From positions 1 to 34,027 of the IMG/VR virus record IMGVR_UViG_3300043394_000085: a stretch of 34,027 nucleotides of DNA. The stretch is one strand, 5' to 3'. The DNA comes from a virus. Lineage: Duplodnaviria; Caudoviricetes. Both the position numbers and the translations under genes were made by a program. A model generated the notes under the pieces. That model searched no databases. It was not told where the DNA came from and saw nothing but the letters and a program-made list of their open reading frames with translations. Below, piece after piece: positions 9,329-25,818 of the stretch (position 1 is the stretch's first letter; the number at the start of each line of letters is the position of its first letter).

Positions 9329-9523
9329 ATGACACCCACAGCAAAGAAGATTCACGACATTGAGTTGCAGATTGCTCGCATTGAGCACAACTCAGCCAAC
9401 TACATTGGCGGCGACAAAGCCTACTACTCTGGCAACCAGACTTTTTTGAAGCCTGCAGCACAGCGCAAAGTTGACTCTCTCAACAAACAGCTGGACGCAT
9501 TGCTTGACAGCGTGGAGGCTTGA
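9329..9523 (+). CDS. Hypothetical early protein (64 aa)
   Basis: Strong RBS AAGGAG; first ORF after the rightward promoter. Confidence 0.75.
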   Translation: MTPTAKKIHDIELQIARIEHNSANYIGGDKAYYSGNQTFLKPAAQRKVDSLNKQLDALLDSVEA

Positions 9524-9525
9524 TC

Positions 9526-10176
9526 ATGACCAAGTTTGTCGCATACTTCCGAGTCTCTACAGATCGCCAGGGCCAGTCAGGTCTTGGCCTGGATGCACAG
9601 CGCCAAGCTGTTGCGCAGCACGTCGGTGACCAGGAGCTGGTTGCTGAGTTCACAGAGGTCGAGTCTGGTCGCAAGACAGATCGTGTGCAGCTGGCTCAGG
9701 CCATGAGCCTTGCCAAGCGTACAAAGTCTGTCCTGGTGATCGCCAAACTTGATCGCCTGGCACGTAATGTCCACTTTATCTCCGGCCTGCTTGAGTCAGG
9801 CGTTCCATTCGTTTGCGCTGACATGCCAGAAGCTGACCGCACCTTCTTGCAAATGTCTGCTGTGTTTGCTGAGTGGGAAGCACGCAAGATCAGCGAGCGC
9901 ACTAAGGCTGCCCTGGCACAAGCCAAGGCCCGTGGCACACGCCTGGGCTGCCCTACCCCTGCAGCTGGCAGCGCAGCTGGTGTGGCAAGCATCAAGACCA
10001 AGGCAGACGCATACGCTGCACGCATGTTGCCCATGGTGCGCGACATCCAGGCACGCATGGCCACTGCCACACTTCGAGACATTGCTGCCGAGCTCACAGC
10101 TCGCGGCATTGAGACCGCCAGGGGCGGCAATACCTGGCACGCAAGCCAGGTTTCCAACTTGCTCGCAAGAGCTTAA
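9526..10176 (+). CDS. Serine recombinase (resolvase/invertase catalytic domain plus C-terminal helical DNA-binding domain)
   Basis: YFRVSTDRQ (catalytic Ser), ESG, AKLDRLARN, ISERTKAALAQAKARG..LG; C-terminal TLRDIAAELTARGI.T.RGG.W. RBS GGAGG. Confidence 0.93.
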   Translation: MTKFVAYFRVSTDRQGQSGLGLDAQRQAVAQHVGDQELVAEFTEVESGRKTDRVQLAQAMSLAKRTKSVLVIAKLDRLARNVHFISGLLESGVPFVCADMPEADRTFLQMSAVFAEWEARKISERTKAALAQAKARGTRLGCPTPAAGSAAGVASIKTKADAYAARMLPMVRDIQARMATATLRDIAAELTARGIETARGGNTWHASQVSNLLARA

Positions 10177-10190
10177 CCAAGGAGAAAATC

Positions 10191-10283
10191 ATGACGAAAG
10201 AAAAACTGATCGATGCAGCCTATGTGGTTGGCACGTTCCTGGTCTTCGGTGGCTGGGGTGTATTGCTGGCATGGAGGGGCTGA
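10191..10283 (+). CDS. Single-pass membrane peptide (30 aa)
   Basis: Hand translation MTKEKLIDAAYVVGTFLVFGGWGVLLAWRG; RBS AAGGAG. Confidence 0.7.
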   Translation: MTKEKLIDAAYVVGTFLVFGGWGVLLAWRG

Positions 10284-10285
10284 TC

Positions 10286-10444
10286 ATGAACACCAGATTT
10301 TTGAAGCACGTTCGCACCATCTTTGCCACTTACGACGCACCGCCTGCAACGATCCGCTCGTATCAGCGCCAGTGGGTCAAGTCGATCCGTAGGCTTGGCG
10401 ATAACTGGCTGGTGGCCAAACAGATCCAGAGGATCCAATCATGA
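10286..10444 (+). CDS. Small basic hypothetical protein (52 aa)
   Basis: MNTRFLKHVRTIF...YQRQWVKSIRRLGDNWLVAK; RBS GGAGG; ATGA overlap with the next gene. Confidence 0.7.
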   Translation: MNTRFLKHVRTIFATYDAPPATIRSYQRQWVKSIRRLGDNWLVAKQIQRIQS

Positions 10445-10737
10445 AGAGCGCCGGCCGCGACATCAAGCAGCGCCAGCTTGACATCTTTGAGCAGCGAGAC
10501 CACCAGTTCTTGGAGCGCTGCCGTGCTCTGGCTGTGATGCTGTGCAAACAGAATGGCCAAGTGTCAATCAATGACATCAGACAATTCATTGAAGTGCCGT
10601 CAGGCGTTCACCCTTCGGTGCTCGGGGCCGTATTCCGAACCAAACAATTCACGACGGTCGGTTTCACAGAAGCCGTCCATCCTCAAGCACATGCACGGGT
10701 TGTGCGTGTGTATTCACTAGCAGCCACTAAGGAGTAA
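10441..10737 (+). CDS. Hypothetical protein, possibly winged-helix (98 aa)
   Basis: Coupled ORF; VSINDIR...HPSVLGAVF...HARVVRVY. Confidence 0.7.
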   Translation: MKSAGRDIKQRQLDIFEQRDHQFLERCRALAVMLCKQNGQVSINDIRQFIEVPSGVHPSVLGAVFRTKQFTTVGFTEAVHPQAHARVVRVYSLAATKE

Positions 10738-10740
10738 ACC

Positions 10741-11697
10741 ATGGCCGGAAAATTAACAGACGACAAAGCAATGAGCGCCAGCCGCTTGCCAGGACTGATG
10801 GGGTTCAGCAAGTACAGCACGCCCAATGATGAGCTGCAGTTCTCAATCAATGCCATCGATGGCAAAGAGCGACCAGACATTGGCAACGAAGCCATGGGCT
10901 GGGGCAATACCCTGGAGCCGGTGATCTTGGAGCAGGCAGCCAAGCGCCTGGGCATCGAGAAGTTTGACACCCAGATTGACAAAGCATTCACGCATGAGGT
11001 CGTGCCGCTCAGCTGCAGCCTGGATGGCGTTGGCTTTGGTGTTGGCCATGAGATCCACAACGATCCCGACAAGGGCATCTATGTGGTTGGCCAGGACAGC
11101 ATCATCCTAGACGGCCCTGGCGTGCTCGAAGCCAAGCTGACCAAGACCATGCCAGAGGACGTGCCTCACCTGGCGCGTGGCCCGATCCAATTGCAGGGTC
11201 AAATGCTGGTCACTGGCCACAAGTGGGGCGCTGTATGCGTGCTGTACCAGGGCATCGAGCTGCGCGTGTTCCTGTTTGCTCCACACAAAGAGACGCAAGC
11301 AGCCATCGCCCGTGCTGTGCATGACTTCCAGGACAAGCTGGACAAGTACACAAAGACAGCTGAGATCGATTGGTATGCACCGGCCAGCAGCAAAGAGCTC
11401 GACCGCATCTATCCGCAAGCTGCCAACCGTGAAGAGATAGAGCTTGGCCAGACAGTGGCTGAGCTGGCGCGTGGCATCATGGAAAACAAGGCCGCCATCA
11501 GGGCAGCGGAGGCCAGCATCGAGAATGCTGAGAAGTTGATCAAGCAAGAGCTTGGACAATCTGAGCGTGGCCGTGTTGGGCAGTATGTGATCAGCTGGCC
11601 AATGCGCAACTACAAAGCTGCAGCCGAGCGCCTGGTTCCGGCTAAGCCTGCCTACAGCATTCGTCAATCATCACTGACGATCAAGGAGGTCTCTTGA
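10741..11697 (+). CDS. YqaJ/lambda-exonuclease-like recombination exonuclease
   Basis: SASRLPGLMG.S.YSTP, WGNTLEPVI, CSLDG, LEAK, QLQGQM motifs; adjacent to the RecT-like gene. Confidence 0.88.
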   Translation: MAGKLTDDKAMSASRLPGLMGFSKYSTPNDELQFSINAIDGKERPDIGNEAMGWGNTLEPVILEQAAKRLGIEKFDTQIDKAFTHEVVPLSCSLDGVGFGVGHEIHNDPDKGIYVVGQDSIILDGPGVLEAKLTKTMPEDVPHLARGPIQLQGQMLVTGHKWGAVCVLYQGIELRVFLFAPHKETQAAIARAVHDFQDKLDKYTKTAEIDWYAPASSKELDRIYPQAANREEIELGQTVAELARGIMENKAAIRAAEASIENAEKLIKQELGQSERGRVGQYVISWPMRNYKAAAERLVPAKPAYSIRQSSLTIKEVS

Positions 11698-11876
11698 ATT
11701 TACCGAAATATCCAGCCATTTTGCATGCGTATGAGCAGGCCGTCGTCGCTATGCTAAACGCAACAAACGCAACAGAAGATGAAGCCGAAGCGTTTGTCGA
11801 CGCAATGGCCAATTTGATTTTTACCACCATGCAAACTTACGTCGAAGAGGAAAATGATGCAGCTCCAAACCACTAA
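11694..11876 (+). CDS. Small acidic hypothetical protein (60 aa)
   Basis: TTG start with RBS AAGGAGG, overlapping the exonuclease stop. Confidence 0.6.
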   Translation: MNLPKYPAILHAYEQAVVAMLNATNATEDEAEAFVDAMANLIFTTMQTYVEEENDAAPNH

Positions 11877-12876
11877 CCAAAGAGGCTTTGCCCCAACCAC
11901 CATGGGCGAAGCAATGCAGTTCAGCGAAATGCTGGCCAGCTCAAGCATGGTTCCCAAAGCCTACCAGGGCAAGCCCAATGATGTCCTGGTGTGTGTGCAG
12001 TGGGGCTATGAAATGGGCCTGGCACCAATGCAGGCGCTGCAAAACATTGCAGTGATCAATGGCAAGCCGAGTGTGTACGGCGATGCCATGATGGCCCTGG
12101 TGCAGTCCAGCCCAGTGTGCGAGGACATCGAGGAATACTTCGAGGGCGAAGGCACAACCAACCCAGTGGCTGTGTGCGTGGCCAAGCGCAAGGGACGCAA
12201 GCCAGTGATCACCAAGTTCTCTGTCGAAGATGCCAAGCGCGCTGGCCTGTGGGGCAAAGGTGGCCCATGGACTGCGTACCCTAAGCGCATGCTGCAAATG
12301 AGAGCTCGCGGCTTTGCCCTGCGCGACGCATTCCCTGACGTGCTCAAGGGCATGATCACCGCCGAGGAAGCCCAGGACTATCCGGACGAAGCAAAGCCGC
12401 TGCCGGTGGCCAAGCCTGCCAATCCGCTTGACCTGGTGGCTAAGCCAGTCGAGCTGCCAATGGCCGAGCCAGTCGTCATTGAGCCAGAGATTGTCAACGC
12501 TGTGAATGAAGTGCTGCAGACGGTCAACGATCAGATCACCGACGCCGTGACCCAGGTAGAAGCGCCAGCTGTCATCGATGAAGACGACACTGACGTTGAC
12601 TTCGGTATCAGTACGGTCGGCTATGCCCTAATGGTTCCAGGAAAAGACTTGCCACACAGCGTGCACAACACGCTTGACGAATGGGCTGACGCATACGAAG
12701 AGCTGGCTGAGAAAACTGCGAAGGCAGGCAAGCGACCAGCACGCGAGCGCATGACGATCTTGAAGGAGCTCAAGGAGTGCAACCTGGAGACCATTGGCCG
12801 CATTGACACAATGAAACGTGTCAGGCACACGGCCAACTACCAGCGCCGGATCAATGCGCTGGGCGCGGCTCAGTGA
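11857..12876 (+). CDS. RecT/Red-beta-like ssDNA annealing protein
   Basis: VPKAYQGKP...G.EMGL.PMQALQNIAVINGKPS...AKRAGLW...W..YPKRML..RAR.FALRDAFPDVL.G; exo-annealase gene pair. Confidence 0.85.
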   Translation: MQLQTTNQRGFAPTTMGEAMQFSEMLASSSMVPKAYQGKPNDVLVCVQWGYEMGLAPMQALQNIAVINGKPSVYGDAMMALVQSSPVCEDIEEYFEGEGTTNPVAVCVAKRKGRKPVITKFSVEDAKRAGLWGKGGPWTAYPKRMLQMRARGFALRDAFPDVLKGMITAEEAQDYPDEAKPLPVAKPANPLDLVAKPVELPMAEPVVIEPEIVNAVNEVLQTVNDQITDAVTQVEAPAVIDEDDTDVDFGISTVGYALMVPGKDLPHSVHNTLDEWADAYEELAEKTAKAGKRPARERMTILKELKECNLETIGRIDTMKRVRHTANYQRRINALGAAQ

Positions 12877-18311: not shown

Positions 18312-18986
18312 TTATTCCTTGTCTTTACAATTATCAAAATGCCAACGCTTTGCAACATTGACAGCGATAGATTTTTGGCAATGAGGGCAATCAACTTTAG
18401 GTTTTGGCAGACCTTTTCGTAACGCACTCATTTTAGCTTTTGCTTCTTCGGTTTGTTTGCGACCCTTCATTGGGCTTGGACGACCTAACAATGCCTCTGA
18501 AGTCTTGCGTTTTGTTTCTTCTGAAGGACGATATGTAGATTCTTTTTGTGCTTTTGCCATGTTTGCTTTTGCAATTTCTGACCTTGGCTTGCGCATCTTT
18601 TGTTTCGTTTCTTCAGAAACAATGCGACCTTTAAACAATTGAGTTACATATTTTTTATGTTCTTCAGTATGTTTGTAGCCTTTAGCACCATCACCACCAT
18701 CTGTCATATTGGTCAATGGTATGCCAATATTACGCATTTCAGCAATTAGCAAACACTCAAAGTCAATGGCTTGAGCGTCAGAAACATTTTCTTCAACTTT
18801 TGTAATAACGGGCTTCATGCCAAGTGCCATCAATTTGCGAATCTTGTTTAGCTTTTTTGATTTGCGCTTGGTGTAATACTTGGCCTCATCCAAATGAAAT
18901 TCGCAACGCTTACCATGCCCTTTACCAACGTAAAAAGGCATCCCATTTCTGGGGTCAGTCAACGTGTAAACGTATGCGTTATCCAT
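18312..18986 (-). CDS. Free-standing GIY-YIG-type homing endonuclease with NUMOD3-like repeats
   Basis: YVYTLTDPRN..PFYVGKG..R, E..LI, LTN.TDGGDG; repeats HTEEHK/SEETKQKM/SEETKRK.S/TEEAKAKMS; C-terminal CPHC...WHFDNC. Confidence 0.88.
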   Translation of the reverse strand: MDNAYVYTLTDPRNGMPFYVGKGHGKRCEFHLDEAKYYTKRKSKKLNKIRKLMALGMKPVITKVEENVSDAQAIDFECLLIAEMRNIGIPLTNMTDGGDGAKGYKHTEEHKKYVTQLFKGRIVSEETKQKMRKPRSEIAKANMAKAQKESTYRPSEETKRKTSEALLGRPSPMKGRKQTEEAKAKMSALRKGLPKPKVDCPHCQKSIAVNVAKRWHFDNCKDKE

Positions 18987-20935: not shown

Positions 20936-23797
20936 TTACGGTTTGTAATAGAGGCCATTGGCCTTGCGAAGCTCTTGCAGCTCAGCGATCCGAGCCTGCA
21001 GCGCAGGGTCTTCTTGCTTGAGCTGGCTTTGTGCTGCCTGCATATATTTGCTGTGCACAGACTGAACGGTCTTTTGCTGGTCATCCAATGACAGCAGGGT
21101 AAACCCTGGCGACAGCATGACATCCATAATGCCCTGCTTTGATGGCAGCTCCTTGCCGTAGATTGTCAACAAGCGGTTGTACTGCTCAGCTGTCATTTCA
21201 ACGCCATCGACCTTTTTGTCTGGCATGCCGACTGGTGAACCAATGCGCACCAGGGCGTCGTCAACCAGGCTGAATTGCGCAGGGCTGACACGGGTTGGCA
21301 GCACCAGCTCCATGGGGTTGCCACGCGAAGTCAGGACTGGGTCGCCCCAAAGGTTGAGCGCCTCTGGCAGATCTGAATTGAAGTATGGCAGGCGTGACTT
21401 GTACTTGTTGAATGCCTCGACAAAGCCGCGCACCCCCATGGGCAGCTCGGGGTCTGCGCGTGTGTCTTTCCTGGTTGGGTCTGACAAGCGAGCAATGCCA
21501 GCCACTAATGAGCTGTAAGCGCCAGCTGGTGAGCCACCAATTGCAAAGCCACCAAACTGCTTGACCAGGCCGTCGACAATCTTCTTGCCGTCAACAGCGC
21601 CCTGCTGGTTTGTGCCAATCAGTTTGGCCACATCAGCCACGCCCTGGAGATAAGGCTGCTCTTTGAGGTACTCATACAAGCCATAGGTAGCGCCCAGGAA
21701 AACCTCTTCAACTTTGCTGGCGTCTGGCTCATGCTTGGCATATTCAGCATAGTCGGCAGCAATGGCCATCAATGCTGAGACCGGCTCCATGCCGTTGTAG
21801 CTGTAGTATGCGTCGCCAACCTTGATTGAGTAAGGCATCCAGCCGTCGCGCATGAGCGCTTCACGGTCTGCCTTGCGTTCTGGGCCACGGCCGGTGATGT
21901 TGCCCTCGGCTGACAGTGCAGCAAACGTGGCCAGCAAGGCTGAACCCAGGGTAACCTTGGCCAAAGCCATGTCGCGGTAGATGCCGCCCTTGGCAACCTC
22001 TTCACGCCACATCGAGGACAGCGGTGCAAACGGTGTGCGCTCGACCAGCTGAATGCCAATGTTGGCAGGCGTCTTGAAAAATGGCACGACAACCTTGAGT
22101 GCAGGGTGATTGAACACCTCTTGCAAATTTTTCAATGCTGGTGGCAGCTCAGAAGTGAACGTGCCTTTTTGGGCATAAGCCATGGCTGCTTCATCCAGGT
22201 CGCGGGGTGGCGACTGAAACAAGCTCTCAATTTCAAGCGAAGCCTTGGCCATTGCGTCAGTCTCTGACAAGCCAGCGTCGACACCTTCACGGTAGACGGT
22301 CTTGCCACGGCGAGTGATCAGAGTATTCAGCTCCATGCGGTAGAGCACACCTTTGAAAAATTCATCCTCGGTCATCAATGCGCGGCCAGGAATAGTGACG
22401 GCCGTGCCGTAGAAGTCCAAAGCCTTGGCCATCCATGTGTCTTGCTCAAGACCAAACGCGCCTGAGCTGATCGATGGAGTCATATTGCCACGCTGCATTT
22501 CGAGCTTGGTTACCAAGTCGCTGGGAGCGTTGTTCTTCCAGGCAGTGCTGGCCAGCTGCATGCCCTCGACAATGCCATTGCGCAGCGACTGCACCATGGT
22601 CAAAGCCTCATCCATGCCGACCTTCTCAGCCTCAGATCCTGGAATCAGCGACTTCCAGCTGCGCACGCCGGTTGGCAGCACGTTGCCGTACATGGCCGCG
22701 ACCATACGCTCTGGGATCTGATACAGGCCAAACAGGCTGTTGGACACCACGTTCTTTGCGTGTGACACAGGCGATGACAGCAGGCCGTTAATGTAGGTTG
22801 TGAACCAGACATCCTTGACACCAGACATCATCGACTTCTCGATCATGGCATTCTGAGCAGCGCGTGACTCCAAGGACAAATAACTGCGCGCCATGTCCTG
22901 CAAAGCAGCATCGCCGCCAAACTCTTCAAGCACCTGGCGAATGACATCAGCGCTGCCGTCGCGTGGAATGCGGAACACTGCCAAGGCTCGGGCTGTCTCA
23001 GTTTGAATGCCCTTCACGCCCTTTTGGATCAAACCATGGAAAGCCACTTGCTGGCGAAGCATGAGCTTGTCAGCATCGGTGGCCATGCCAGAGTTGACCA
23101 GCTTGAACAACTTGTCGAGCTCGTTGGCGCTGGTCTCTAAAACCTCCAGGGCTTTGTAAGTCTCGACAGCGTTGGCCATCATCCGGCCATCGCTACCAAT
23201 CAGGCGCGTCAGGAATGACTCACCAATGCCAGACTCAGCAGCCTTGGCTTTGATCTCATCAAACGTCACAGCCTTGGTCTTGATGTTCAAGGCATCGGCC
23301 ACACCGGCCACAATGCCAGCAGCGTCGTGGTTTTGGTATTGAGACAGATTGAACGGCTCGACCTTGACACCGGCAGCCAGCTCTTCTGTGGTCGGGCTTG
23401 GTTTACCAACCAAAGCGCCCTGAGCCTGGCGACGGCTCACAGCCTGGCCGACAGTTTCTGTCATTGCCGGACTGGCTTCTGGAATGACTTTAAAGCGGCC
23501 AGCTTTTGCCGCATCAGACAGCTCTGTGTCCAGGATCTTGCCAGGCACAAGCTGACGCTCAGCCTTGGCTGCCTGGCGTGTGATCAATTGGCGAATGGCT
23601 GCATCAGCTGGGCCAGCGACCTGGATGCCTTCAGACATGCTAGGCGTGCCAGGCTGGTCTGTGACCGTCTCAGCGACTGGGGCTGCCGCTGCCTCAGCAG
23701 GCATTGGCTCAAGTTTGGTTGGATCTGCTGGCGCTGCAGCTGGTGAAGCTGCTGGCAAGATGCTGTTGAGGCGTTGATCGAGTGGTTGAATGGCCAT
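20936..23797 (-). CDS. Large internal virion (ejection) protein, ~953 aa
   Basis: Position before the tail fibre; motifs VPFFKTPANI, GNITGRGP, GWMPYSIKVGD..YSY...EP resemble large podovirus core proteins. TGATG coupling to the upstream gene. Confidence 0.8.
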   Translation of the reverse strand: MAIQPLDQRLNSILPAASPAAAPADPTKLEPMPAEAAAAPVAETVTDQPGTPSMSEGIQVAGPADAAIRQLITRQAAKAERQLVPGKILDTELSDAAKAGRFKVIPEASPAMTETVGQAVSRRQAQGALVGKPSPTTEELAAGVKVEPFNLSQYQNHDAAGIVAGVADALNIKTKAVTFDEIKAKAAESGIGESFLTRLIGSDGRMMANAVETYKALEVLETSANELDKLFKLVNSGMATDADKLMLRQQVAFHGLIQKGVKGIQTETARALAVFRIPRDGSADVIRQVLEEFGGDAALQDMARSYLSLESRAAQNAMIEKSMMSGVKDVWFTTYINGLLSSPVSHAKNVVSNSLFGLYQIPERMVAAMYGNVLPTGVRSWKSLIPGSEAEKVGMDEALTMVQSLRNGIVEGMQLASTAWKNNAPSDLVTKLEMQRGNMTPSISSGAFGLEQDTWMAKALDFYGTAVTIPGRALMTEDEFFKGVLYRMELNTLITRRGKTVYREGVDAGLSETDAMAKASLEIESLFQSPPRDLDEAAMAYAQKGTFTSELPPALKNLQEVFNHPALKVVVPFFKTPANIGIQLVERTPFAPLSSMWREEVAKGGIYRDMALAKVTLGSALLATFAALSAEGNITGRGPERKADREALMRDGWMPYSIKVGDAYYSYNGMEPVSALMAIAADYAEYAKHEPDASKVEEVFLGATYGLYEYLKEQPYLQGVADVAKLIGTNQQGAVDGKKIVDGLVKQFGGFAIGGSPAGAYSSLVAGIARLSDPTRKDTRADPELPMGVRGFVEAFNKYKSRLPYFNSDLPEALNLWGDPVLTSRGNPMELVLPTRVSPAQFSLVDDALVRIGSPVGMPDKKVDGVEMTAEQYNRLLTIYGKELPSKQGIMDVMLSPGFTLLSLDDQQKTVQSVHSKYMQAAQSQLKQEDPALQARIAELQELRKANGLYYKP

Positions 23798-25818
23798 CAC
23801 TTAGCTCCAGAAGTGCGAGCCTGACGGCCACGCTTTACGCTTGACGAATCTCCTGTGGCAGCTCCACTTCGTTCTCCGCCCCCCATTCCGTTGGCAGACC
23901 CTCCGGGTACGCCAGCCCCAGGTAGTTGTCCCTGGTTAATGGAAGGTTGAACTTCTGGAGCAGCTCCAGGACGTAGTCCGGCCCGCTCCCACTCTGGGGC
24001 GTTGATTCCGCCTGCTGCATTGAAGACTTCATTGCGTGCCTCGTCTTGTGAGAGTTTGCCTTTGCGATATTGTAGCCAAATGTTGTCTACCTTGTCAGCA
24101 TTTGCTGCTGTTTTGAATGTATCAGGGAACAGGCCGCGAACAGCCTCCCAGGTAATGGATTGCATCTCACGGGGTAAGACGCCACGCTCTTGAGCTGCAC
24201 GTCGGTACGCTTCAGCATAGATTCCATATGTGCCTTTTACGCCAGTGACAGAGCTGTTCTTTGGGCCACCTTCACCGGTAATGCCAGAGCCAAAGTTGTG
24301 CAAAACCTCACGGCTATTGCCAGACAGTGGTCGCAGCAAGCCAGCAGCCACCGCATGGGTGTCGATGGTCACAGCGCCAGATGGGTCATTGGGCGCGTAG
24401 ATGTTGTTGTAGAAGTTGCGAACCTTGTGCATGTCGCCCAGGTTCTTGCTGATGTTCGCTTTTGATGGGTCATCCAAAATGACGATGGCTTTGCCGATCT
24501 CATTGAGCGAACCCCAGCCGGTCTTGGTTGGAGTCTTGCCGTCAGCATTCATGCGCAGGCCAGCAAAGTCACCCTCTGGAGTAACGATCTGGTGCTCGCG
24601 TGGCAAGTACGCCTGGTCATATGTGCGCAGCCACATGGCTTTCAAACCTGGATCTGTAATCTCTGCCAGGGTTTTGCCTTTGATCGCGTCAACCATTGGC
24701 GCGTATTGTGGCTTTGACCAAATGACTTTGGCCATTTCGGTCATTGCGTCATCCCATTTGGCGGTCTGTTTTCCCGTCATGATGTCAAGCACTCGCTGGC
24801 CAAGAGACACATTCATGAACCAATCTTTTTGTGGCGATAGAACGGCCAGCACGCCAGACACTGCCTGGTCAGGAACCTGGTACTCATTCGACCATTTGCT
24901 GGTGATGTTGCGCGCACCGTCATACCAAAGTTTGCTGCGCTGGCGCGTAGCTTCCGGAACCTGGTCATGCAAGAACAACAAGTTGTCTTTGACTTCTGTG
25001 ATGAAGTCTTCGGCCTGCTTGTCTGGGCTGCGTGCTTTTGACGCAAAATTTGGATACTGTTTAATCAGTCCGACGTTGTAATTAAATGCTTCTGGATCTG
25101 TCTTTGCCGATTGCAAATCGATCACCAGATTGTTGGCCAATGGGTCTTCTGTGGCTTTGACAGCGGTTGGCAGTCGAGTACTCACCACATTGGGGCCAGA
25201 CTGCACAATGCCTAAACCACGCGCAGGCATGCCGGTTTTTTCCAGCGCGTTGATTGTCATCTCGGCTGCTTTTGGTATCAGAGGCTTAGCAGCTGTGACC
25301 GTGCCTGCCACACCTGGTATTAAGCCTATTGCAGCTCCGCCAGCCTGCAATGCAGCTGTGCCGTAGTTGCCCTGCTGCACTGATGTCACAGCCTCTTCAC
25401 CCATGCGCACAGCTTCTTGCGTCTGCAAACCAGTACCCAGGAAGGGCACAACGTCCGCTAGGCCCATGTTTAAGGGTAGGTTGCTACTAGGGCCACCCAA
25501 AAGCGTTTGAGCGTTTTGACGGGCTTTATAGCGATCCACACCCATGCCCTCAAAGCCAGCTTGTAAAAAACTGGCCAGGCGCTCACGCACAGTCGGGTCA
25601 TAGGCAGTTGCCTGCGCTGGTTTTTGTCCACTGTAAGCAAAGTCGGGTAAACCCCTAGAACCAACTTCGGCAACCAGGATGTCACCAGGTCGTTGACCAG
25701 GAGCCATGGCTTGCTGTGGTTCCGCAGCTGGTGCAGGCGCAGTCTCGACCGGCTCTGTAGGAAACTGGATCGCTGTCAATGCTGACAAGTATTTATTTTC
25801 GACCGGGCTGTAGGCCAT
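23797..25818 (-). CDS. Putative internal virion protein with pre-toxin-like hydrophobic segment and C-terminal HhH-GPD DNA-glycosylase-like domain
   Basis: Within the ejection cluster. LADVVPFLGT...GNYGTAALQAGGAAIGLIPGVAG, then WY..AR...VLAVLSPQ..W..NV, HKVRNFY..I...VTIDTHA, Y...AEAYR.AA...LPREMQSITW. The CDS is secure; the domain call is by motif resemblance. Confidence 0.7.
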   Translation of the reverse strand: MAYSPVENKYLSALTAIQFPTEPVETAPAPAAEPQQAMAPGQRPGDILVAEVGSRGLPDFAYSGQKPAQATAYDPTVRERLASFLQAGFEGMGVDRYKARQNAQTLLGGPSSNLPLNMGLADVVPFLGTGLQTQEAVRMGEEAVTSVQQGNYGTAALQAGGAAIGLIPGVAGTVTAAKPLIPKAAEMTINALEKTGMPARGLGIVQSGPNVVSTRLPTAVKATEDPLANNLVIDLQSAKTDPEAFNYNVGLIKQYPNFASKARSPDKQAEDFITEVKDNLLFLHDQVPEATRQRSKLWYDGARNITSKWSNEYQVPDQAVSGVLAVLSPQKDWFMNVSLGQRVLDIMTGKQTAKWDDAMTEMAKVIWSKPQYAPMVDAIKGKTLAEITDPGLKAMWLRTYDQAYLPREHQIVTPEGDFAGLRMNADGKTPTKTGWGSLNEIGKAIVILDDPSKANISKNLGDMHKVRNFYNNIYAPNDPSGAVTIDTHAVAAGLLRPLSGNSREVLHNFGSGITGEGGPKNSSVTGVKGTYGIYAEAYRRAAQERGVLPREMQSITWEAVRGLFPDTFKTAANADKVDNIWLQYRKGKLSQDEARNEVFNAAGGINAPEWERAGLRPGAAPEVQPSINQGQLPGAGVPGGSANGMGGGERSGAATGDSSSVKRGRQARTSGAK
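23835..24032 (-). CDS. Nested out-of-frame small acidic protein (65 aa)
   Basis: RBS GAGG 6 nt before the ATG. Globular-looking DYVLELLQKFNLPLTRDNYLGLAYPEGLP.EW.AE.E.ELP, while the host frame here becomes Gly/Ala/Pro low complexity. Confidence 0.6.
   Translation of the reverse strand: MKSSMQQAESTPQSGSGPDYVLELLQKFNLPLTRDNYLGLAYPEGLPTEWGAENEVELPQEIRQA

Follow-up and report, generated by a model that had tools for sequence, protein, structure and literature searches.

Ugi is a beta-sheet protein that inhibits the host UDG family. For the bacterial defense system Rpn, an antitoxin with its own translation start lies within the toxin gene and blocks a DNA-damaging enzyme; this antitoxin, RpnS, is in frame and is the toxin's own C-terminus, according to the account in PMC10327210. 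For muf toxin genes, a small ORF was reported directly downstream in 89.4% of cases (PMC5576092). Phage polyvalent proteins form a class predicted to be injected (PMC5512222), and the antiphage glycosylases Dag1 and Dag2 act on guanine-type bases (bioRxiv 2025.10.29.685425).

Here, a locus that shares features with each of these systems was analyzed. The window, i.e., the whole stretch of 34,027 nucleotides under analysis, corresponds to a virus record of 34 kb. Its structural genes form a block of podovirus type (capsid, nozzle, and internal virion proteins), and it also encodes RecE/RecT, a serine recombinase, and an O-like initiator. The host gene (23797..25818, minus strand) sits in the internal-virion gene block and encodes a 673-aa protein with an N-terminal part of ~200 aa, a DUF7178 (PF23802) domain with a predicted HhH glycosylase fold (residues 205 to 613; 23980..25206, minus strand), and a 61-aa low-complexity tail. 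This tail overlies a nested gene (23835..24032, minus strand) that starts with ATG and encodes 65 aa in the +1 frame relative to the host gene, a predicted inhibitor or immunity protein. An earlier note had described a same-strand, out-of-frame ORF of 65 aa with GAGG 6 nt upstream and 10 Asp/Glu versus 4 Lys/Arg residues, and its coordinates, spacing, and charge were all confirmed. The G/A/P/S-rich filler noted in the host frame was also found, at 59% over the overlap versus 29% in the DUF7178 domain. The host stop is coupled through TGATG, as had been claimed, to the next gene, which encodes an internal virion protein (phrog_6651; 20936..23797, minus strand); in most loci this stop lies 38 nt past the nested stop. 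In the natural protein P0287, DUF7178 is fused, on its downstream side, to a homologue of this next gene, so the host-gene tail may be a relic linker. The position between internal-virion genes and the P0287 fusion are indirect signs that the host protein may be carried in the virion and injected. A Pfam scan of the 673-aa protein returned DUF7178 only, and a comparison of its N-terminal 204 residues with 120 polyvalent proteins gave no match; the case for virion loading thus rests on gene position.

The locus is probably best read as encoding a glycosylase effector borne by the virion and, overprinted on the effector gene, its cognate inhibitor. DUF7178, a predicted HhH DNA glycosylase/AP-lyase, would likely be present in the phage particle and be injected with the DNA, and, once in the infected cell, it would excise a guanine-type base from the DNA of either the host or a competing element. 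The separately encoded nested protein would block the DNA-binding cleft of DUF7178 and, being made from its own internal start signals, would keep the enzyme harmless during virion building. Because the domain is usually embedded in a long virion polypeptide, an antidote gene cannot follow the stop codon; it would instead occupy the +1 frame of the linker behind the domain, and enzyme and antidote would then move as one cassette.

Like the MuF toxin-immunity pairs of temperate phages (PMC5576092), the locus places a small ORF next to an enzyme domain that is part of a phage structural protein. Unlike in those pairs, the partner sits within the gene in another frame, often in its middle, and a MuF domain was not detected; the main text of PMC5576092 makes no mention of a glycosylase. 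As in phage polyvalent proteins (PMC5512222), DUF7178 occurs beside ART-PolyVal, LPD22, LPD38, InPase, GNAT, and SLT domains. The passages of that article on polyvalent "immunity" name no cognate partner genes, unlike here, and its main text contains neither "glycosylase" nor "overlap" (0 matches each), while its supplements might list the domain. Dag1 and Dag2 share with DUF7178 the HhH fold, a Lys/Asp pair, and an i/i+4 polar-Trp pair (bioRxiv 2025.10.29.685425). As far as the preprint describes them, they are host-encoded defense proteins without a cognate inhibitor, whereas DUF7178 is phage-encoded in a virion block and has a predicted inhibitor of its own. Like the Rpn intragenic antitoxins (PMC10327210), the predicted inhibitor gene lies inside the enzyme gene with its own start; unlike RpnS, the nested partner is offset by +1, unrelated in sequence, and phage-borne. 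Like Ugi, it is a small acidic phage protein predicted to occupy the DNA-binding cleft of a glycosylase; unlike Ugi, it is modeled as three short helices, and the enzyme that it is predicted to target is an HhH protein of the phage itself. Most likely, the pair works like the MuF pairs and the Rpn genes-within-genes while belonging to neither, and it does not appear to be a Ugi.

The AlphaFold2 model of DUF7178 (pLDDT 94.7) is an all-helical, two-lobe fold, in which helices 249 to 256 and 260 to 270, with G257, form the helix-hairpin-helix. In a wide structure search, the top match was Tm1821 Ogg2 (Z 9.2, rmsd 3.9, 186 aligned), followed by queuine-salvage QNG1 (8.5 and 8.4), AGOG (7.8), and then Endo III, MagIII, ROS1, OGG1, and MutY. 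HhH glycosylases or QNG1 relatives made up 19 of the top 21 rows. Z-scores of 8 to 9 fall in the tool's middling range for helical proteins. Foldseek against the PDB gave no match at an E value of ≤0.001, with weak AGOG rows only, and a PDB sequence search with the domain profile gave 0 matches. The structure comparison supports the glycosylase-like domain that had been suspected from the sequence.

Across 51 sequences, S328-P329-Q330, K465, D486, H488, Q553, and W557 are invariant (K465 and D486 in 51/51 aligned). K465 (24424..24426, minus strand), which follows the helix-hairpin-helix, and D486 of the TIDTH motif (24361..24363, minus strand) are taken by us to be the catalytic Lys and Asp, an assignment by motif position as known from Nth/OGG1 rather than by residue-level superposition. 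The QSITW motif (Q553..W557; 24148..24162, minus strand) would supply the predicted base-recognition/stacking pair. In OGG1, the chemistry relies on Lys/Asp, His, and Gln/Phe. The invariant K, D, H, Q, and W of DUF7178 parallel K118, D132, D184, and W188 of Dag1 (bioRxiv 2025.10.29.685425, section 5). DUF7178 is predicted to be an HhH glycosylase whose OGG/Dag1-like K-D-H-Q-W site is intact, and its residue pattern would suit a bifunctional enzyme that recognizes a guanine-type base. PADLOC gave no match, and the likeness to Dag1 is one of fold and residue layout.

The domain is mobile. It was matched in 1,484 long proteins, the best 120 of which carry ART-PolyVal, LPD22, LPD38, InPase, SLT, or GNAT domains in many combinations, and IMG/VR holds about 1,000 stored DUF7178 stretches as estimated by one motif. 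Shorter stand-alone forms occur in cultured Synechococcus, Mycobacterium, and Streptomyces phages (L473 and L494; BFVD G8EYE9, B5LJA6, and A0A291LIQ2). In the literature searched, which did not extend to subscription papers, neither DUF7178 nor the pair with its partner was described.

When modeled alone, the nested protein was helical, with three short helices (pLDDT 74.6); the core helices span residues 20 to 27, 34 to 41, and 52 to 56. Together with DUF7178, ESMFold2 gave an ipSAE of 0.88, compared with 0.00 for the best of three controls. Of 157 solved complexes, 116 reach the ipSAE mark, as do 2 of 215 mismatched pairs; these calibration counts hold roughly because the prediction ran on alignments of our own. 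The runs agreed in at least 95% of contacts, with a partner pLDDT of at least 85. On the domain side, the predicted interface comprises residues 329 to 330, 434 to 439, 458 to 465, 486 to 487, and 499 to 512 and thus includes the SPQ loop, the hairpin, K465, and D486; on the partner side, it comprises residues 15 to 24, 39 to 44, and the acidic residues 49 to 57. The best-defined contacts are hydrophobic, with partner helices predicted to pack on domain segments 434 to 446, 366 to 375, and 389 to 398, and the acidic stretch would take the place of DNA phosphates. The small protein is therefore predicted to bind and plug the active site and DNA-binding cleft of DUF7178, and this predicted cover over the catalytic residues favors the effector-inhibitor pair proposed in the earlier note. 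Its suggestion of a Ugi-like DNA mimic does not appear to hold for the modeled fold; at most, the acidic C-terminal half may act in such a way. No comparable complex was found by sequence or by fold search. The best Z for the small protein was 2.6 in a type of search that unlisted families may escape, and the best match in the ESM Atlas (0.78) was a hypothetical viral cluster.

The two genes are closely linked in viruses. Among 80 loci retrieved with the long protein, the nested ORF was present in 78: 70 nested in +1 (one cut by the contig end) and 8 that overlap the host gene only briefly and extend beyond its stop; the 2 other contigs stop before the ORF position. Conversely, DUF7178 was directly upstream in 99 of 100 viral loci, a redundant set, retrieved by the small gene alone, and the remaining locus is at a contig edge, with 86 nt of upstream sequence. 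Co-occurrence directly 3' of the glycosylase-like domain, as had been anticipated, was thus observed from both sides. The placements among the 99 were 71 nested near the end, 6 following, and 22 nested with a host frame that runs 400 nt or more further or off the locus. In such mid-gene cases, the host ORFs reach 1,400 to 2,500 codons and encode polyvalent proteins. A remote unannotated copy was found at the same spot in a 3,100-aa protein of Rhodobacteraceae phage LS06-2018-MD07 (E 0.003).

For a reverse sample, DUF7178 loci were picked by the catalytic motif alone, and the 80 with flanks out of 120 loci were used (L454 and L457, being too short, were left out of the tree). A partner of the type described above (type I) was found in 45 of the 80 at an E value of <1e-3 and weakly in 2, with 33 loci without one. 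In 15 of the 45, the gene was nested with 400 or more host codons remaining, and in 21 it lay past or after the host stop. Three of the 33 partner-negative loci looked type I-like by eye. In 23 of the 80 (~30%), including CRP-738-like marine clades, nothing recognizable was present while the catalytic motifs were kept, and these loci weigh most against immunity being strictly required. Roseobacter phage CRP-738 and phage zth2-2, whose complete genomes were searched, yielded no partner match. In CRP-738, gp40 (L153:6873-9380) combines a methyltransferase-like region with DUF7178 and adjoins the portal gene; with no detectable partner, this phage is a ready comparator for partner-bearing phages.

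Seven of the 33 partner-negative loci (L439, L441, L452, L456, L487, L499, and L510) form one clade (FastTree 0.997) with a different acidic ORF, also in the +1 frame, located just after the QSITW motif. These type II ORFs encode ~60 to 100 aa with an "LEEVY"-like motif, are mostly mid-gene, and replace the type I partner. A type II profile matched 19 further loci among L560 to L635 at an E value of ≤7e-8, several of them near-identical to the training loci and none with a type I match. No homology between the two types was detected (HHalign probability, <2%). L506 was dropped as a type II candidate, as it lies outside the clade.

Copies of the small gene also occur apart from DUF7178. A metagenome scan gave 119 loci, of which 33 were paired, 32 were unpaired on contigs offering 600 nt or more of upstream sequence, 41 were unpaired on short fragments, and 13 were pattern matches outside the family at an E value of <1e-4. 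In a genome scan, 63 loci comprised 4 paired, 18 unpaired, and 41 outside the family at the same threshold. The 19 orphan loci inspected had cellular or island neighbors (kinases, PEP-CTERM, TctC, TonB plug, integrases, and RadC), and in L304 a remnant of the last residues of DUF7178 precedes the orphan. Five metagenome-assembled genomes (MAGs) contained one to four copies each and no DUF7178, and two further MAGs were DUF7178-negative as well, in a search that found 3/3 positive controls and in MAGs that may be incomplete. Orphans are rare: in the order of G003, they occur in 2 of 401 genomes, the centre genome being one of the two. The bacterial orphans and, in one clade, the exchange of the partner for an unrelated acidic ORF in the same position suggest immunity-like genetics.

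A different explanation, which we regard as unlikely, is that the small protein is an assembly cap or chaperone for a nontoxic enzyme that repairs oxidized guanine in phage DNA or removes host adducts. The nearest folds are indeed the repair and salvage enzymes Ogg2, AGOG, and QNG1, and several clades lack a partner. However, the predicted cover over the catalytic Lys and Asp fits immunity better, as do the unrelated acidic replacement and the orphans in genomes without the enzyme, and the companion domains in DUF7178 proteins are conflict enzymes. The acidic core (net charge, -2 to -11) and the orphan copies would also suit a counterdefense DNA mimic directed at host HhH glycosylases of the Dag type, which exist as host defenses (bioRxiv 2025.10.29.685425), with the link to DUF7178 being only historical. 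This is improbable: in viruses the small gene is essentially never without DUF7178 (the 99 of 100 loci above), the orphans sit in cellular or island contexts, and the scanned window proteins included no products of DNA-modification genes.

The preferred reading, an inhibitor translated separately from the effector, is consistent with the start signals. The Shine-Dalgarno GAGG (24039..24042, minus strand) lies inside host Glu-Ala codons. The Glu codon behind it is GAG in 56 of 57 sequences versus a background of 59%, and the host codon that gives the nested ATG is T-ending in 57 of 57 versus 35 to 37% (0.07 to 0.82 at other conserved Asn/Asp columns). Among remote loci, ATG and Shine-Dalgarno were both present in 34 of 45, compared with 4 of 173 control windows. 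A sigma-70-like site spans 24098-24069: a promoter-like -10 hexamer, TACAAT (24069..24074, minus strand), inside host Leu-Gln-Tyr codons, and a loosely conserved -35 hexamer, CTGACA (24093..24098, minus strand), separated by an 18-nt spacer. In the close clade, the -10 hexamer reads TACAAT, TAAAAT, TAGAAT, or TAAGAT (TA..AT) in 51 of 51 unique upstream sequences, which demands the rare codons CTA, TTA, or GTA (NTA, 1.0 versus ≤0.30 at 32 other Leu/Val columns). Outside this clade, there was no enrichment (10/45 versus 48/216), and a family-wide internal promoter was dropped. The nested ATG, the Shine-Dalgarno, and, in the close clade only, the -10 box are kept by synonymous-codon bias. These signals also argue against programmed frameshifting into the +1 ORF, which would yield a self-inhibited enzyme-inhibitor fusion and which we consider very improbable. 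Overlaps are always +1 (39 of 45 loci), and P0169, a database protein, joins the two parts in this way. However, the ATG, Shine-Dalgarno, and -10 are conserved, and in the 21 of 45 loci where the gene lies past or after the host stop, 6 are in other frames. P0169 is 97 to 98% identical to both frames of L309 and was ruled out as Rosetta-stone evidence, being a one-base indel of an L309-type locus.

In the nested protein, residues 1 to 18 are shaped by the host frame, and residues 19 to 65 form the conserved core. Among 57 unique sequences, dN/dS for codons 19 to 65 was 0.26 in the nested frame and 2.28 in the host frame, and for codons 1 to 18 it was 1.0 and 0.27, respectively (pooled pairwise NG86, with nonindependent pairs). 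Selection therefore changes frame near codon ~18 of the nested ORF and acts on the nested frame beyond it, as had been expected. The nested frame stays open in 61% of synonymous host-frame recodings, so that its openness by itself is weak evidence for a gene; conversely, the host frame would stay open in 11% of synonymous recodings of the small protein, yet it is open, in loci ascertained with the long protein. The small protein has 83 close homologues, is also found as a free-standing gene, and reached 603 clusters at 50% identity in a profile search. That the nested ORF is a mere shadow of the host-gene sequence, for which the frequent survival of an open +1 frame could speak, has next to no chance, being refuted by the selection on the nested frame, the free-standing homologues, and the 603 clusters. 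The nested ORF is a real gene, bound to the DUF7178 domain at a fixed place. The claim that gene callers miss it stood where the gene is fully nested, as in phage record OP947163, in which it is unannotated, and failed for many metagenome fragments, on which homologues were called as genes. The small protein had no Pfam, PHROG, NCBIfam, or PADLOC match, and tblastn against GenBank phages gave no match. In RNA run X1, of which contigs only were available, contigs span the whole phage at similar depth; a contig gap at 23854-23926 carries no meaning, and the small-share runs X2 to X7 add no evidence.

If the effector-inhibitor reading holds, the pair would comprise a glycosylase effector delivered by a phage and a protein that inhibits an HhH-superfamily glycosylase; the searches run turned up neither. 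It also gives a testable function to a large unannotated family and to DUF7178, and it offers an answer to how the producer is spared by multidomain injected proteins that leave no 3' end free for an immunity gene. A wider pattern beyond the earlier note comprises nesting in the middle of genes, an unrelated second family of nested ORFs, and bacterial orphans, and acidic +1-frame ORFs behind each domain may serve as a recipe for spotting toxic domains in polyvalent genes. A bolder proposal, which we put forward tentatively, is that podovirus-type phages inject a guanine-targeting glycosylase weapon whose antidote was overprinted at least two times, by two unrelated families, and that bacteria steal the antidote, alone or in tandem arrays with small modules, as antiphage defense. 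Polyvalent virion genes would then generally carry an unannotated layer of immunity genes hidden in other frames.

On bacterial-looking contigs, orphans are fused to or arrayed with two small modules of about 48 and 30 aa (L260:1258-2060, L332:384-1345, L304:693-1203, L257:936-1304, L347, and L369). These modules may be immunity proteins for other effectors; no effector partners were found among the fetched loci, and the orphan-fused module had no detectable homology to type I or type II (HHalign probability, <2%). In Acidobacteriota MAGs (G004:C13:88092-93730 and G005:C3:82517-116731), two to four orphan copies occur, several within 35 kb, near Ser/Thr kinase, Fic, RHS, IS66, and integrase genes. 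In L014, L018, and L019, the host frame extends ~100 aa beyond the nested gene, adding a domain-like segment. Within the window, a GIY-YIG/NUMOD3 homing endonuclease gene (18312-18986, minus strand) lies between two tail-fiber genes. The serine recombinase, RecE-like, and RecT genes (9520-12876, plus strand) of this podovirus-type genome suggest a temperate lifestyle, in which the promoter-like site of the nested gene could confer superinfection immunity.
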